From a virus (taxonomy: Duplodnaviria > Heunggongvirae > Uroviricota > Caudoviricetes): a stretch of 64,000 nt of DNA. Under the pieces are notes generated by a model that searched no databases, was not told the origin of the DNA, and saw nothing but the letters and a program-made list of their open reading frames with translations. Below, piece after piece: positions 9,842-46,952 of the stretch (positions are counted from its first letter, which is position 1; each line of letters opens with the position of its first letter). The stretch covers positions 1 through 64,000 of the IMG/VR virus record IMGVR_UViG_2913177423_000001; one strand, 5' to 3'. The position numbers and the translations under genes are program-made.

Positions 9842-10183
9842 GCTGTTGCTAAATCGCAATGTATGATCTGCATCATCGACTGAAATCATCCATTGCTGAA
9901 ATTTTTAGTTGATCTTCCTAATGTTCAGGCTTATATTCACGTCGTCGTAGCAAATTCTGCGACCAGGTTTGACAGCCTGAATGTTAGTGCGGACAACCGC
10001 AGATTTCCGATATTGCGGTATTTTTGTGTCCGTAAACCGCGTTACGCCCGAATTATGGTGGGGCGTGATGGGGAGGCTTCGGCCTGCTGGTTTCACTAAC
10101 GCCAGTCTGTCAACCCTGTCACGTCCTGCCACCTGTTTGACAGCGGGTAGCAGGTTGTTAAACCTGTTAGTGAGGCCGTAACT

Positions 10184-22600: not shown

Positions 22601-22629
22601 TTGATTGTAGGTGTAACATAACATAGAAT
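22601..22629 (+). promoter_or_regulatory. sigma70-like promoter
   Basis: TTGATT, 17-nt spacer, TAGAAT; downstream of operator copy and heading a non-coding region. Confidence 0.4.
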
Positions 22630-22741: not shown

Positions 22742-23326
22742 TATACAGGGACTCGCTTTGGCACCGAGCAAGCCAAAGTTCGGCAGGTTTAGTGCGTAAA
22801 GTGGTTTCAGAGAGAGCACTTTACGGAGTAAACGACAAGACATGTTGAGCCACGGAAGGTCTTTTTAAGATGTTCATTGATGATGGTCCGGAAGAGAGTA
22901 ACGGGACTCACCGCATCGAATCATCATCAATGCACATCCTCAACATTAAGGAGGCGCAGGGTTGGTTTTGTGCTCGCTTTTTTACTGACTCTGAGTCTCC
23001 TTAATGTTGCGGTAATGCACCTATGCGGATGCGGCCTTGCATTGTGTCTTGAAAGAATGGGGTAAGGCCGGGGATATCCCCAGGGGGAGGCACCCCCGCC
23101 GCAACGAACAGCCATAGACGGCAGTCGAGTGATGAAAACGTGAAAAGACTTTAAACCTCGTTACGGCTGGCGTGGCAAACGCGACAACCGGGATAGGACG
23201 GTGACGGGCGGAGAGAGTGCCGCATCAAGAAAGAAGCCGACTTGTGATTACTTTCTGCGGGCCTTTGAAAGTGAATCCAGCTCAGGCAGTCGGCTTCTTT
23301 CTTGTGTGAGATGTAGTAGCGTGTTT

Positions 23327-23352
23327 GCCCATCTTCGGGTGGGCTTTTTTAG
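23327..23352 (+). terminator. intrinsic terminator
   Basis: GCCCA-tcttcggg-TGGGC hairpin followed by TTTTTT. Confidence 0.6.
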
Positions 23353-23533
23353 GGTTTTCGTCATTGTTAGCGACTTTGCGGCTGTTTATAAACTGACCAT
23401 TAAAGTAAATGCAAACGATGATCTGATGATGGTAGCGGCCTAATAAGCCTGACGCCACGGGGTATGAGTCGTCCCCCGTCAAAAAATCGACCACAGAGTG
23501 TCCCCGTCTGTGTATTAGGGAACGGGGAGGCAT

Positions 23534-23610
23534 AACAGGCAAGGGCGCTGGTGTGATTAACCAGATGAATGAGAAGGGTCAGGTCTTTCTGGTCAGCGCC
23601 CTTACCTGTT
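23534..23610 (+). repeat. structured hairpin element of the tRNA island (copy 1)
   Basis: 17-bp arms AACAGGCAAGGGCGCTG and CAGCGCCCTTACCTGTT around a 43-nt loop; shares the ACAGG-AAGGGC motif with the other copies. Confidence 0.45.
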
Positions 23611-23811
23611 ACGTCCCTCCCGCGTAACAGCCATTGCTTGATGGTATAGGGGAAAGTTTGTTGGTTACGGGTATATCCCGTCATGCTGAAGGCGCTAATC
23701 ACGCTGGAAGCCAGGGTTATGCATCCCCTGTTACCGAATTGCAGCCAGGGCGCGTTGCGCCGAAAAGCATACGGAGGTGGAAGCCCTCGCCGGAGACGTA
23801 CCCGGCACAAT

Positions 23812-23888
23812 GGTGGTGTAGCTCAGTAGGATAGAGCAGCAGCCTTCTAAGCTGTCGGTCGGTGGTTCGAATCCACTCACCATCGCCA
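23812..23888 (+). tRNA. tRNA-Arg (anticodon UCU)
   Basis: cloverleaf readable by eye: acceptor GGTGGTG/CACCATC, D-arm GCTC-AGTAGGATA-GAGC, anticodon loop CTTCTAA, T-loop TTCGAAT, encoded CCA. Confidence 0.8.
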
Positions 23889-23892
23889 AATT

Positions 23893-23968
23893 GCCGATTT
23901 AGCTCAGTTGGTAGAGCAGTCGCTTTGTAAGCGAATGGTCAGCGGTTCGATCCCGTTAATCGGCACCA
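23893..23968 (+). tRNA. tRNA-Thr (anticodon UGU)
   Basis: acceptor GCCGATT/AATCGGC, D-arm GCTC-AGTTGGTA-GAGC, anticodon loop TTTGTAA, T-loop TTCGATC, encoded CCA. Confidence 0.8.
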
Positions 23969-23970
23969 AC

Positions 23971-24036
23971 ACAACAGGTAAGGGCATTCTCCCTTATGGG
24001 GCTTGGCTTAAATGCATCGAGTGCTCTTACCGTTGT
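23971..24036 (+). repeat. structured hairpin element of the tRNA island (copy 2)
   Basis: arms ACAACAGGTAAGGGCA and TGCTCTTACCGTTGT directly after tRNA-Thr. Confidence 0.45.
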
Positions 24037-24182
24037 GATGAAGTGCAGCTCTTTGAAGCAACCAGAAGATAAGCATCTGGCTTCACAACATAAACCGCAG
24101 GAACGACCAATAAACGGTAGTCCGTATGGCGAACACCCCGTTGAGGAAGAGGCCTGGCCGGAACCGTAACCGGCACTACAAC

Positions 24183-24260
24183 GTTGAGAGCATTGGCGTA
24201 ACGGGGTCATATCCCAATCTATGAATAAATGTTGCGTTGCAGCGTGACAACCAGTGTTTT
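24183..24260 (+). repeat. degenerate copy of tRNA-island element with T-arm-like minihelix
   Basis: GGGGTCATATCCCAATCTA and TTGTGGTGAATGC shared with the copy at 24854. Confidence 0.35.
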
Positions 24261-24386
24261 CAACATTGTGGTGAATGCACAGGCTGATGTGCCGCAACTA
24301 CAGTAGTGCGCGCTTTGCGGGGCTTGCTACAACCCTGTGTCGGAGTTCAGCGCCGACCATCACAATTTATTTAGAAACTGTCATCC

Positions 24387-24800
24387 ATGAGCGCGAGAAC
24401 AGTAATTATGCAGAAAGAGCAGTTTGTTATTTCTCTAGTGGTTAGCACCAGTTATCAGGTCGATAAAGTTTCGAAAGAAAGCGTACCTGAAATTGATGTT
24501 GTCGATGTGTTCGGCAATGAACTCAAAATACCACTTCGTGAATTTAATGAAATAGCAGCTCCGTTGGGCAAAATTGAAGGCCTGGAAGAATACCACAAGC
24601 GGATGATTATCGAGCGCGCCCAACTATGCCAGCGCATAAATAAGCTGGTTAGATTTATCGGAACAGATAACTTTCTCGCCATCGGCTTGGACAGTCAGTT
24701 GGAATTACAAAATCAGCTCGAAAGCATGATTGAGTATCGAAAAGCTCTTGATTCGCGGTTGATTAAATTAACCGAATATGACCCATCAGTAAGCGGTTAA
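24387..24800 (+). CDS. hypothetical protein (137 aa)
   Basis: ATG at 24387; AT-rich ORF embedded in the tRNA island. Confidence 0.45.
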   Translation: MSARTVIMQKEQFVISLVVSTSYQVDKVSKESVPEIDVVDVFGNELKIPLREFNEIAAPLGKIEGLEEYHKRMIIERAQLCQRINKLVRFIGTDNFLAIGLDSQLELQNQLESMIEYRKALDSRLIKLTEYDPSVSG

Positions 24801-24853
24801 TTATAAATTTGGGGCGGATGGTTAGTCCGCCGTTAACTCCATGAAACGGAGTA

Positions 24854-24932
24854 CGCAACAGGTAAGAGCATTCTCCTGTAACGGGTTCATATCCCAATCT
24901 ACAGGTCCACCAAGAATGCTCTTTCCGTTGCG
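24854..24932 (+). repeat. structured hairpin element of the tRNA island (copy 3)
   Basis: 20-bp arms CGCAACAGGTAAGAGCATTCT and AGAATGCTCTTTCCGTTGCG; loop carries GGGTTCATATCCC. Confidence 0.45.
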
Positions 24933-24979
24933 GTGAATGCGGCTAAGCGCACGCGGAACAGTTAAAACAATCTTCCTTA

Positions 24980-25303
24980 ATGTTTAAGTCAAACATCCCG
25001 GCGTTAATTGTTAACTGGTTAACGTCACCTGGAGGCACCAGGCACCGCAATCTAATAAAGTTTCAAGCAATGGAGTTTTTGTTGTCAGACTACAGATATA
25101 GATGGTTGTGGAAGAATATCCTGTCCATATTCAAGTTTTTTCTTCCGCTATTTGTCTGCTTTGTCATGCTTCCTGAGCTGAAATACGCAATTTCAGACAC
25201 CTTAAGCACTATCGTTACTTTTGTGTTTTATCTTTACTTTGATTACTTATTGAGCACTAAAATCTATGAATTATCCGATGAAATGCAAGGTGGCTGTAAG
25301 TGA
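24980..25303 (+). CDS. small hydrophobic protein (107 aa)
   Basis: ATG at 24980; predicted TM helices; AT-rich. Confidence 0.35.
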   Translation: MFKSNIPALIVNWLTSPGGTRHRNLIKFQAMEFLLSDYRYRWLWKNILSIFKFFLPLFVCFVMLPELKYAISDTLSTIVTFVFYLYFDYLLSTKIYELSDEMQGGCK

Positions 25304-25440
25304 TGAATTTTTGGGCGTTTGCCGATAAGAACCCTGGTTGGACATTTTTATTTCTGCTGGTGGTTGCATATGGGGTCGAGCAAGCGGCAAAAGCCTTACG
25401 CGGTTCTGGCAAAAAGCGTAAGCGGAATTGACAGTAATCT

Positions 25441-25516
25441 GGCCCCTTAGCTCAGTGGTTAGAGCTGGCGACTCATAATCGCACGGCCATCGGTTCAAAT
25501 CCGGTAGGGGCCACCA
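25441..25516 (+). tRNA. tRNA with CAU anticodon, probably tRNA-Ile2 (lysidine) rather than Met
   Basis: acceptor GGCCCCT/AGGGGCC, D-arm GCTC-AGTGGTTA-GAGC, anticodon loop CTCATAA, T-loop TTCAAAT, CCA; 5-prime half resembles enterobacterial ileX as recalled. Confidence 0.75.
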
Positions 25517-25702
25517 TATTTGGTTGTAACACGGCGTCTGGCACATGCGTCGTTAGCGGTCTGGTGACGTTAAAGGGATTCCCTCCCTCGCTTAGGCAAA
25601 CAAATCAGGTAGCCGGAATGTGCAAGCCACCGTTTAGTTCTTTCTCGGATAAAGGGGCTCACCACCCTGGCGACGCGGTGTGACAGCCGGAAGAGCACGG
25701 CG

Positions 25703-25750
25703 CACAACAGGAAAAGGCGTTTAATTAGCGTGAGCGCCGTTTCCGTTGTG
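25703..25750 (+). repeat. structured hairpin element of the tRNA island (copy 4)
   Basis: arms CACAACAGGAAAAGGCG and CGCCGTTTCCGTTGTG. Confidence 0.4.
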
Positions 25751-25972
25751 GTAATTGCGGCTATGCGCTCGTGACGAAGCCATTTTCATTCATTGCGGTT
25801 CTGATAAGTGTCGTCGCCGGGCGTGGCTGACCTGGCAGGTGGAGGCACCACCGCCACAACTCCTTTCAATTCATCATATAGCCGCTCAGGCTGTAACCCT
25901 TAATTAATACGAAGTTTCGACATCTCTATCGGTTTAACCGAGGGATGGTCGCGCGTGTAAAAAGGAGACGTT

Positions 25973-26548
25973 ATGTTAACGGCGAACGATAACGCGTATG
26001 CAGAAGCAGATCTCATATTGAGTGACTTCATCGGTCAGCGGGAACGCTGGACACAAAAGCGAGAGGAACTTTATGCCTCGTTAGTTCGCAAAGGTGTCAA
26101 CATTGAAACCGCTCAAAGCGGCGATATGACGGTAGTCAGTGTTGGATTACATGGTGTGAGCGTGTCCGCAGCCAATCATGAGCCATACGTAGCGTTATCC
26201 GAGTCGATGGCAAGGCTAATTAAGTTTCTGAAGCAAACAGAAGCCAATAATGTTTTCATCGCCAAAAAGAACATCAATTTTTCTGCCGCCGTGTTCTGGA
26301 TGATGAAGGGGCTTGACGCCCGCCGGGCATCATGGCCTAAAGGGAGCTATATGTCGATGTTCCGTGGCAGTATTGGCAGTAAAGAAAAGCTCGTCGAATT
26401 CCTGCCGGAAGAAGCATTCGATATTGTGGAAGGGTGCGATGTGATGGTTATGCCTCGCCTGGTAATGATGAATGGAGATTTACAGGCACAGACAGACTGG
26501 TTCGCCACTGGCGTGGATATTATCGCGACTGACTGGGAGGCATTCTGA
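25973..26548 (+). CDS. protein with C-terminal DUF2829-like (Tad2-like) domain
   Basis: ATG with AAGGAG upstream; C-terminal AAVFWMMKGLDARRASWPKG and DWFATGVDIIATDW fit the DUF2829 pattern. Confidence 0.45.
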   Translation: MLTANDNAYAEADLILSDFIGQRERWTQKREELYASLVRKGVNIETAQSGDMTVVSVGLHGVSVSAANHEPYVALSESMARLIKFLKQTEANNVFIAKKNINFSAAVFWMMKGLDARRASWPKGSYMSMFRGSIGSKEKLVEFLPEEAFDIVEGCDVMVMPRLVMMNGDLQAQTDWFATGVDIIATDWEAF

Positions 26549-46171: not shown

Positions 46172-46952
46172 TTTTATGTTGAGTTTGAAATTTACTGATT
46201 GTACATTTTGATTAGATTGGTTCACCGCTCGACGCAACGAGACAAATCCTCAAGGATTTCGTATGATTGCCAATGTCATAGTTATGGCAGCGCAATACAG
46301 GTGGCTAAAAGCCCCCGTTGACTCACGGTGTTCCAACCTGTATTGCGCCGCCACCAGACCGTGGAACAGTCTGTGACGGCTTCGAAAGCAAGGAGTCACT
46401 ATGAACAATTACAAACTTTTCCCATCACTCACCGTCTACTCACGCAATAACCTGCGTTCTTTGCTCCCATCAAAACTGGAGGGAGTATCAAAATGACCGT
46501 TCGCTACCTGAATTATCAAATCCAGAACATCACTGGCGGTTGCTATGACTGGTTTGTCACTCTTGGTAAAGAAGTGATCACCGGGAAGCTGGATGAAGTG
46601 AAAGCTAAAGCAATGGCCTACGCCTGCAAGCAAGCCCAAAAGAAGAAAAGAAAAGCATAAGAAAACACACTGTTGCGCCCTGGCATTATCGTGGGGTATA
46701 TTTCTACGGCACCTTAGAAAAACGGGTGCCGGGATTGGTCTCCCGGTAATGTCAAAGGCGACACATAGACGCCGCAAGCGTCTTTTTTGTTGTCGGCGCA
46801 CTCGCACACCTATCAATGGTGGGCTGTGTGGTGGCTTCCTCGGAAGCGCCGGTTCCCTTTGACGCCGGTAAGACCAACTCCACACAGTCCACCGCCAGTA
46901 AGATTGGTCTCTTCGGCGGTGGTATCGTTCACTGTCAAAGGAGGCTGCCAAT

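Follow-up and report, generated by a model that had tools for sequence, protein, structure and literature searches.

A conserved RNA hairpin module joined to tRNA-shaped elements in a P1-like phage-plasmid and in other phages

The 64,000 nucleotides (nt) analysed here, positions 1 to 64,000 of the IMG/VR virus record IMGVR_UViG_2913177423_000001 and referred to as the window, belong to a P1/D6-like phage-plasmid. We find that five elements on the plus strand, E1 to E5, are copies of one conserved RNA hairpin module, which we call E, and that E2 to E5 are each directly followed by a second element, S, with the shape of a transfer RNA (tRNA). E is a strongly conserved, covarying family that is missing from Rfam and from the record annotations examined, none of which marks the hairpin, though P1 and the lambdoid and Shiga toxin (Stx) phages are among the best-studied viruses. 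Compared with Rfam 15 (4227 models), the hairpins returned microRNA-model noise at E1 and E3 (E-values 0.4-8) and nothing at E2, E4 and E5.

All five elements named in the original prediction are present, and their arms were recovered by a repeat search, the left arm as family D3 and the right arm with its tail as family D2, each in four copies. E1 (23533-23611) is a near-perfect palindrome without an S tail; it encloses the GGTGTGATTAA motif that ends a transfer-messenger RNA (tmRNA)-like module in other phages, and has a homologue in P1 (locus L001, 1713-1795). E2 (23970-24037) starts 2 nt past the CCA of tRNA-Thr, and its loop allele is also found in Klebsiella phage MK54 and in the FelixO1-like phage Moogle. 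The frame of E3 (24175-24272) has diverged: where the bulged A is seen elsewhere it has a 1x1 internal loop. Its hairpin loop contains the T-arm-like GGGGTCATATCCC and a second inner hairpin. E4 (24854-24932) has the canonical frame around a loop that forms the minihelix CCTGTA-AC-GGGTTCATATCCC-AATC-TACAGG-T-CCACCA. E5 (25703-25750) has a short loop, and homology to P1 and to lambdoid phages stops at its left edge. The two T-arm-like minihelices expected in the loops are those of E3 and E4, which have a 24-nt motif in common, GTAACGGG(G/T)TCATATCCCAATCTA (96% identity, repeat family D8). Other parts of the prediction fared less well. The shared left arm and right-arm tail are found in most copies, with a diverged left arm in E3 (ACGTTGAGAGC) and no tail in E1, and loops of 35-45 nt do not describe E5, whose loop has only ~7-11 nt, or E3, whose ~50-nt loop is branched, with two inner hairpins.

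Folded on the plus strand, all five elements form a long hairpin with a stem of ~18-22 base pairs (bp), as well as which none of 200 shuffles folds. Against dinucleotide shuffles the z-scores are -4.9 for E1, -5.7 for E2, -5.4 for E3, -7.9 for E4 and -5.0 for E5, in keeping with the strong structure proposed for the copies. Minus-strand folds are clearly poorer for E2, E3 and E5, and G.U pairs are frequent in the family (U22.G44 in 36 of 52 frames); for these two reasons we assign the structure to the plus strand, on which the tRNAs and open reading frames (ORFs) lie as well. When a covariance model of the family was run over all 64 kb with filters off, only five sites scored, the next-best site reaching 13 bits. 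E2, E4 and E5 score 56, 45 and 54 bits, partly by construction, as they are in the seed alignment of the model; E3 scores 16 bits, and E1 scores 23 bits on the minus strand and 19 bits on the plus strand. The top five matches to the left-arm pattern all lie inside the region, as do the three best matches (at most 2 mismatches) to the tail pattern, which was matched 8 times with 3.1 expected. The copies are thus related, as had been proposed. A dispersed palindromic repeat was rejected, since covariance-model copies occur in the window only at 23.5-25.8 kb. So was a CRISPR (clustered regularly interspaced short palindromic repeat) array, as had been anticipated: spacing is irregular (439, 884 and 849 nt between left arms; 233, 662 and 818 nt between right arms) and arm identity is only 71-89%.

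Two pattern scans of IMG/VR returned at least 119 and at least 120 stretches, and the distribution figures given here hold among the matches listed. Per scan, the family is present in at least 120 viral contigs; at least 68 distinct elements came from the first scan and at least 137 from the second. Their stem of ~19 bp consists of 6 bp (CRYAAC/GUUGYG), a bulged A, GG/CC, a U.U or U-A pair, AAG/CUU and then ~7 covarying bp. The near-invariant frame reads (C/T)A(C/T)AAC-A-GGTAAG-AGCATTG ... CAGTGCT-CTT(T/A)(C/T)C-GTTG(T/C)G and encloses an interior of 35-65 nt that exists in many unrelated, discrete alleles, the loop itself being hypervariable and 10-55 nt long. In 52 distinct frames the helix is 86.5% paired, as against 81.2% in column shuffles and 33-63% with slid partners, and 71 cells carry double changes, as against 32 in shuffles; none of 500 shuffles reaches the observed values. 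Covariation of the stem, the point on which the family had beforehand been staked, is thus present on these 52 frames, and most compensatory changes fall in the inner seven pairs.

The conserved tail CGTTGYGGTGAATGC, originally assigned to the hairpin, is the 5' strand of the separate, tRNA-shaped S element, and the 3' strand of E2 to E5 overlaps the 5' acceptor-like strand of S by 3-4 nt. Reading the tail in this way offers a structural and evolutionary explanation for the small RNAs (sRNAs) STnc100 and PasD, and predicts where their 5' ends arise. The window holds five S elements, all on the plus strand. S0 (23006-23105), of STnc100 type in sequence, has no E hairpin ahead of it according to the covariance model. 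S2 (24032-24089) has a minimal tRNA shape: its acceptor-like helix is joined by a D-like arm, and its T-like arm reads CCAGA-AGAUAAGCA-UCUGG. It is common to Sashavirus, Klebsiella phage-plasmids and P22-like phages. S3 (24267-24364), upstream of the ORF at 24387-24800, pairs its acceptor strands UGUGGUG/CAUCACA and has the D-like arm GCACAGGCUGAUGUGC and the T-like arm GUCGG-AGUUCAGCG-CCGAC. S4 (24929-25049) is STnc100-like and forms the 5' untranslated region of the ORF at 25070-25303. S5 (25746-25859) is of STnc100 type and lies upstream of a Tad2-like ORF, with the T-like arm GGUGG-AGGCA-CCACC and the acceptor 3' strand GCCACAA (repeat families D5 and D13).

Across the family, S consists of a 7-bp closing helix, a short linker of 2-3 nt, a D-like stem of 4-5 bp, a variable middle and a T-like arm whose 5-bp stem stacks directly on the 3' strand. 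The common lambdoid version reads GUUGUGGUG-AAU-GCGC-AGGCUGAU-GCGC, 40-150 variable nt, then GCCGG-AGAUCAGCA-CCGGC-CACCACAAC. An ACC-type tail is frequent, with NCC after the helix in 37 of 88 distinct copies. In an alignment of 47 distinct S frames (A2), 94.3% of cells are paired and 12 pairs show double changes, values that none of 500 shuffles reaches, the selection filter having enforced part of the closing helix and both stems and having left the loop-loop helix free. This helix between the D-like and T-like loops is 90% paired, and in two loci (L039 and L076) it shows a compensatory switch from GGCUGAU/AUCAGC to GGUCGAU/UUCGAC. With its closing helix, D-like arm, stacked T-like arm and loop-loop interaction, S is a tRNA-like structure.

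ARAGORN and Rfam (RF00005) call three tRNAs in the window, all on the plus strand and all annotated, and call neither E nor S a tRNA. The three are tRNA-Arg(UCU) (23812-23888), whose acceptor strand GGUGGUG resembles the S acceptor strand UGUGGUG, tRNA-Thr(UGU) (23893-23968) and a tRNA with a CAU anticodon (25441-25516), the P1 homologue of which is annotated as tRNA-Ile2. Three loci (L133, L033 and L155) combine the same acceptor helix with a canonical D arm, GCUC-AAUGGC-GAGC (GCUCAAUGGCGAGC), the T arm GCCGG-UUCGAUU-CCGGC and an enlarged middle; despite these canonical arms neither ARAGORN nor RF00005 calls a tRNA in them. That S grades into such canonical tRNA-like forms, that several E loops hold what look like T-arm relics, and that the P1 region is dispensable would suit a reading of the hairpins as functionless, hitch-hiking relics of tRNA or tRNA-like genes together with leader and trailer complementarity. 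We regard this as quite improbable, since compensatory changes keep the ~19-bp stem in more than 50 distinct contigs, the arms are nearly identical in otherwise unrelated phages, and no E frame encloses a complete tRNA. E as the leader and trailer stem of a complete tRNA was likewise rejected, no tRNA being present in any frame with an interior of 66-260 nt.

In the variable middle of some S elements we noticed a 16S-like insert, AGCTAGATGGTGAGGTAATGGCTCACCATGGCGACGA, which lies at 1890-1936 of locus L094 and recurs in L030, L069, L073 and L115. It matches positions 237-283 (helix 11) of the bacterial small-subunit ribosomal RNA (rRNA) model with 27.8 bits (E-value 2.9e-4, in L094), and by its sequence we take it for a putative rRNA-fragment mimic inside a phage sRNA scaffold.

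At a relaxed threshold, S4 matches the Rfam family STnc100 (RF02076) over model positions 31-147 with 42.4 bits (E-value 3.5e-7), which is below the gathering score of 47. The match begins exactly at the E4 tail and excludes the hairpin; the P1 and D6 homologues of S4 score 33.4 and 39.6 bits. S shares with STnc100 and PasD the Q-proximal neighbourhood in lambdoid prophages. The differences are that E lies outside RF02076 and is missing from the K-12 prophage copies examined, and that the common lambdoid S (GCGCAGGCUGAUGCGC ... CCGGAGAUCAGCACCGG) goes undetected by RF02076 even at an E-value of at most 0.05. Both STnc100 and the related PasD are sRNAs encoded by prophages, and PasD is described as Hfq-associated (bioRxiv 10.64898/2026.05.13.724894; PMC12370729). 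A tRNA-like shape goes unmentioned in the literature we found on them. The literature searched yielded nothing on these hairpins, on tRNA-like prophage sRNAs or on a tmRNA-like gene of P1, the P1 genome paper lying outside its coverage.

In Rac-type and Stx-type phages an S-type element forms the leader of kil, without the hairpin. No E was found in the prophages DLP12, Qin and Rac of E. coli K-12, where only S elements turned up, upstream of dicB and kilR. These K-12 copies (L130, 19455-19580, and L131, 8265-8390, minus strand) are of STnc100 type without E. They serve as leaders, in Qin for dicB immediately behind dicF and in Rac for kilR immediately behind the annotated sRNA KilS; in both prophages a DicF-type sRNA is directly followed by a tRNA-shaped leader.

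The hairpins had been placed immediately after or between tRNA genes. E2 does abut tRNA-Thr; E1, E3, E4 and E5 do not abut a tRNA, as E1 ends ~200 nt upstream of tRNA-Arg, E5 starts 186 nt past the CAU tRNA, and E3 and E4 flank an ORF. Nor is the link to tRNA genes general: a tRNA lies within 600 nt in only 20 of 122 relatives, and the constant partner is S. Copies of E gathered without a tail constraint run on, in the majority, into GGTGAAT-type S starts or tRNA-like starts, and in one locus (L136) the first three nt of a genuine tRNA-Arg(UCU) are the last three of the hairpin 3' strand. Because the 3' strand enters S, tRNA-like RNAs or tRNA-Arg(UCU), we place E at the 5' boundary of phage tRNA and tRNA-like units. 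On its other side E comes after upstream units of several kinds, among them intrinsic terminators, tRNA 3' ends and structured modules of other types. Of 150 distinct contexts upstream of E, 54 have a T-run within 12 nt, 24 a conserved small hairpin, 13 a tRNA 3' end, 11 a conserved non-coding module (M5) and 7 a tmRNA-like module.

The contigs that bear E are of ~95 kb (P1-like) or of 35-55 kb (lambdoid or siphovirus-like). Named phages with E include P1, D6, Klebsiella phage vB_KpnS_MK54, Salmonella phage Sasha (Sashavirus) and the lambdoid mEp460; the outer stem is AT-rich in the copy of the FelixO1-like Citrobacter phage Moogle. A search of one genome per species gave 12 full-frame matches, 11 of them in records named Enterobacterales and the twelfth on a 4.2-kb scaffold filed under Martelella alba; six more matches lacked the frame, near the ~4 expected by chance. 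The true matches are all of E followed by S, an order required by the search pattern. Five lambdoid contigs were examined; in each, E-S has the Q antiterminator gene on one side and the holin-lysozyme genes on the other, is co-oriented with them, and is therefore in the late-operon leader.

By analogy with known processing sites, we tentatively favour a role for E as a leader or processing stem that also insulates, one that RNase III-type cleavage would target and that would compete with the acceptor helix; the proposal that the elements are RNA-processing signals or tRNA-derived thus stays the most plausible class and is, as a whole, partly supported. The E-S units would lie in long, mostly untranslated polycistronic transcripts, the 'ban/tci' operon leader in P1 and the Q-dependent late leader in lambdoid phages. 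The two-turn E stem would serve as the processing and insulating signal: RNase III would cleave within it, and RNase P would act where E meets S or a tRNA. The E 5' arm (CACAAC) and the S 3' end (CACCACAAC) have their sequence in common and would compete for one middle strand, GUUGUGGUG, which gives the 3-4-nt overlap of E with the S acceptor helix. Removal, cutting or opening of the 5' arm would then let the S acceptor helix, or the tRNA, take its native fold, and separate stable tRNAs, tRNA-like sRNAs and accessory-gene mRNAs would result. If this model is true, it shows how long untranslated phage leaders become such stable products.

We prefer this reading because a two-turn stem between transcript units matches the anatomy of RNase III sites, and because S has an acceptor/T-arm stack. 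The RNase III sites of T7 early mRNA and the stems of rRNA precursors are stems of about two turns between transcript units, and here stems of 18-22 bp stand between tRNAs, S elements and ORFs on one strand. As in T7 R1-R5 and the rRNA leader and trailer stems, E has a small bulge or mismatch and is repeated between units of one transcript, and as in T7 the copies are alike in sequence with variable apical parts. Unlike those stems, E has arms conserved across very different phages, a loop that is a hypervariable insert and a 3' strand that overlaps a tRNA-like acceptor helix, and its cleavage is only predicted. RNase P, for its part, recognises the acceptor/T-arm stack and processes the P1/P7 C4 RNA precursor and the M3 RNA of phi80; tmRNA and 4.5S precursors are further non-tRNA substrates, and T4 has the stable RNAs C and D in its tRNA cluster. 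Like these, S would appear to be a small phage RNA with acceptor- and T-arm-like ends in a longer transcript beside tRNAs, and two C4 loci are present in the window. These systems lack a counterpart of E, and the likeness rests on the shape of S and on general knowledge. As a separate candidate, intrinsic terminators were rejected: a scan of the array on the plus strand leaves E1-E4 unflagged and flags only the inner stem of E5, weakly (tail GTTTCCGTTG).

Several points weigh against this role. Co-transcription of the array is deduced from strand, spacing and the P1 annotation only. RNase III has weak sequence specificity, which leaves an arm identity above 90% across unrelated phages unexplained, and a pure processing role does not explain why the hypervariable loops fall into discrete alleles. 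E1 lacks an S partner, and its minus strand scores as well. CRISPR interference (CRISPRi) knock-down of trnT, plp, upl, tciABC, trnI and ban in P1 caused no plaque defect (PMC10695390), so any role of E is accessory. Finally, the boxA-like right arm and the homology breakpoints at E edges leave room for other roles.

One such role would be antitermination, with the right arm (C)AGUGCUCUUU acting as a boxA-like NusB/NusE site that shields the untranslated transcript from Rho, as in rRNA operons and CRISPR arrays. UGCUCUU(U/A) is found in the right arms of E2, E4 and most relatives, a GC-rich hairpin located 14 nt further downstream gives an order like that of nut sites, and the array is ~2.5 kb long and mostly untranslated. 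The motif would, however, be base-paired in the stem as soon as it is transcribed; the covarying variants GCAGCUUU, UUUCCUUU and UAAUCUUU drop the boxA consensus and keep the pairing, and E1, E3 and E5 lack the motif altogether. We therefore give this idea very little credence.

The loops that a processing role leaves unexplained might themselves be what matters, the stem serving as a frame that presents or releases a small RNA, for instance a T-arm minihelix or some other imitation of a host stable RNA. Such an RNA would be an sRNA seed, or would sequester defence nucleases or host enzymes that bind tRNA or rRNA, as a decoy or sponge. Many discrete alleles do sit within an almost invariant frame, and 18 of the 105 distinct loops contain a T-arm-like hairpin, of 5-6 types in all, with ~1 expected by a rough estimate. 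The E2 loop of P1 and D6 contains a perfect T arm, AGGGTTCGAATCCCT, behind a hairpin like a long variable arm; some neighbouring S-frame inserts mimic 16S rRNA helix 11, and the adjacent cargo includes a Tad2-like anti-defence domain. Yet most alleles resemble nothing known, a Rfam scan of 20 loci having added only the helix-11 match; E5 is nearly loopless, the release mechanism is purely hypothetical, and the loops of the window have no antisense targets in 64 kb beyond chance. On balance we think a display function unlikely. Two related candidates were rejected. As antisense regulators of the phage's own genes the loops reach a best complementarity of 8-12 nt in 64 kb, the same as shuffled loops, and as copies of E. 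coli rRNA, tRNA or tmRNA the loops and inserts gave, when ssrA and the rrnH operon were searched with blastn-short, no more than one 14-mer and a match to a T arm, the helix-11 match of one S-frame insert type coming from the Rfam model.

The breakpoints at E edges also raise the question of whether the arms act as DNA, as recombination linkers or as remnants of an ERIC-, Correia- or MITE-type palindrome (enterobacterial repetitive intergenic consensus; miniature inverted-repeat transposable element) that swap cassettes, RNA folding being incidental. Similarity to P1 and to lambdoid phages breaks off at the E5 left arm, P1 and the window have the E2 arms in common and not the E2 loop, identical CACAAC repeats stand on both sides of an E-S unit, and the genes that follow E-S units are interchangeable. 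The 2.7 kb around the hairpins is moreover a mosaic: it is ~91% identical to phage D6 and ~89-91% to P1-type phages over 52-63% of its length, the closest plasmids, of ~92 kb from E. coli and Salmonella, reach at most 94.6% identity over 77% of the query, and sub-modules each match a different, otherwise unrelated phage. No single phage or plasmid record covers 80% or more of the region. Compensatory changes and strand-specific G.U pairs nevertheless speak for selection on pairing in the transcribed strand; the copies in the window are undispersed, being confined to a 2.3-kb stretch, all lambdoid copies checked are co-oriented with the neighbouring genes, and no transposase, integrase or target-site duplication was seen. 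Recombination at the arms may be a consequence of their conservation and not its cause, and we judge a role at the DNA level improbable.

Comparison with known DNA repeats points the same way. ERIC, Correia/nemis and REP (repetitive extragenic palindromic) elements are, like E, imperfect palindromes (50-130 bp) that are co-transcribed with flanking genes and form RNA hairpins, and Correia hairpins are RNase III substrates. Unlike them, E is phage-borne, clustered, fixed in orientation and in its 3' partner and undispersed in host chromosomes, without a terminal-repeat or target-duplication signature. With integron attC sites E shares the imperfect palindrome, the extrahelical base, the variable centre, a place between exchangeable cassettes and outer motifs that end in AAC and begin with GTT. 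This candidate too was rejected: the outer motifs (C/T)A(C/T)AAC and GTTG(T/C)G, here CACAAC / GTTGTG, misfit RYYYAAC / GTTRRRY, and no integrase is evident nearby, that is, among the ORFs of 21.5-28 kb, the stretch searched. The G.U pairs of E also favour RNA over folded single-stranded DNA.

Upstream of E1, the tmRNA-like module (23350-23530, plus strand) contains a tag frame at 23411-23446 that encodes ANDDLMMVAA and ends in two stop codons. Ahead of the 10-codon tag lies an A-rich 'resume' context, AAAGTAAAT, and behind the tag come a covarying hairpin, a likely pseudoknot and the GGTGTGATTAA motif. Relatives of the module lie in P1 (L001, ~1540-1720) and in two further loci (L005, 2340-2500; L006, 2330-2490), and across P1-like, lambdoid and FelixO1-like phages and MK54 a 10-codon AND...(A/V)A frame is conserved in at least 45 distinct contexts, with variants such as ANDEQFLAVA, ANEEMYLAVA, ANDDLMLMAA, ANDDVVLMAA and ANDNVFLAVA. 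Neither ARAGORN nor Rfam finds a tRNA-like domain in 23350-23530; ARAGORN calls no tmRNA in the window, P1 or D6, and the Rfam tmRNA matches of the module are sub-threshold (26 bits, E-value 0.01). ARAGORN and Rfam thus lend no support to a complete tmRNA upstream of E1. The 'permuted tmRNA' that ARAGORN reports in Moogle is stitched together with part of a tRNA-Lys; the Moogle genome announcement reports an ssrA gene, and for P1 we found no equivalent in the literature.

Taking these elements together, one could see in E and S a phage-wide 'RNA punctuation cassette' that arose from tRNA genes, in which RNase III and RNase P would release cargo, the frames would be swap junctions, and the inserts and tag module would mimic host translation RNAs; we hold this wider view to be doubtful, if conceivable. 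The contact between D-loop and T-loop would in S have been replaced by a Watson-Crick loop-loop helix. Cuts would free tRNAs, Hfq-bound sRNAs (STnc100/PasD) and accessory or anti-defence mRNAs from transcripts controlled by C1 or Q. The invariant frames would double as portable junctions for cargo exchange among P1-like, lambdoid and other enterobacterial phages. The variable inserts, like the tag module, which lacks a recognisable tRNA-like domain, would imitate host translation RNAs in function. Less ambitiously, E belongs with the structured hairpins already known from polycistronic phage RNAs, where they act in processing or as leaders, and what is unusual is the invariant frame, the hypervariable insert and the fusion to a tRNA-derived sRNA scaffold. 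Where genome mosaicism is concerned, E-S points to hot spots of cargo exchange between phages. Lambdoid and Stx-type phages have the module between Q and the lysis genes, which is also the stretch that holds stx; in the window, E5-S5 is followed by a Tad2-like gene.

In the window, E-S units precede the ORF between S3 and E4 (24387-24800, plus strand; 137 aa), which has a crAss001_48-like domain (PF21825, 47 bits), ORFs at the tciB and tciC positions, which match no family, and, downstream of E5-S5, an ORF of 191 aa (25973-26548, plus strand) with a Tad2-like (Thoeris anti-defence 2) domain (PF11195, 37.7 bits, E-value 3e-9). The slot of the crAss001_48-like ORF is filled by other modules in P1 and D6, which suggests a cargo hot spot. 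In D6 these include a class-II tRNA with a UGA anticodon (L002, 2627-2714), which exactly fills the gap from the 3' end of one S element to the E hairpin that comes next and is missing from the window. ARAGORN calls it tRNA-Ser, and in Rfam it is tRNA-Sec-like with 43.1 bits, under the gathering score.

The P1 counterpart of this stretch starts, in the record annotation, at the C1-controlled Pban promoters, followed by a 'dicF-like region', tRNA-Asn and tRNA-Thr; plp and upl, annotated on the opposite strand, come next, then tciABC, tRNA-Ile and finally ban. The plp and upl genes (minus strand, L001 2119-2688, which is AF234172 69472-70041) wholly overlie the plus-strand E2-S2-E3-S3 (23970-24370 in the window). 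Since they overlie conserved plus-strand RNA modules, parts of which are shared with unrelated phages, plp and upl are probably not protein genes. Both are non-essential in the CRISPRi screen (PMC10695390).

Directly after the CAU tRNA lies M5 (25517-25700, plus strand), a conserved non-coding module of ~185 nt that matches no Rfam family and precedes E-S in the window, in P1 and in lambdoid phages. Its identity to the window copy is 87% in P1 and ~79% in lambdoid phages (Stx2c phages, cdtI, mEp460). In mEp460, where M5 lies downstream of the repressor gene, the order is a promoter-like region, M5, E, S and a DicF-like sRNA with its terminator.

Some smaller features of the neighbourhood deserve mention. 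A CGTA(A/C)CCGGCAC motif (repeat family D6) stands ahead of tRNA-Arg (23797-23808), E3 (24165-24176) and a Sashavirus hairpin (L007, 2424-2441), suggesting an upstream module shared by tRNAs and E hairpins. A long hairpin (AAGAAAGAAGCCGACT ... AGTCGGCTTCTTTCTT) within 23224-23350 and then a strong intrinsic terminator (23323-23344) occupy the position of the 'dicF-like region' of P1. Between 22.5 and 26.1 kb the sole sigma-70-like promoter match is at 22601-22629; with this lone match and the strong terminator, transcription of the array needs read-through or an unrecognised promoter. Elsewhere, the window's two C4 antisense RNA loci are separate (9931-10136 and 46709-46899), one carrying a c4-a1b1 target element and the other adjoining an isrK match, which implies two immunity-type regions inside one 64-kb window.

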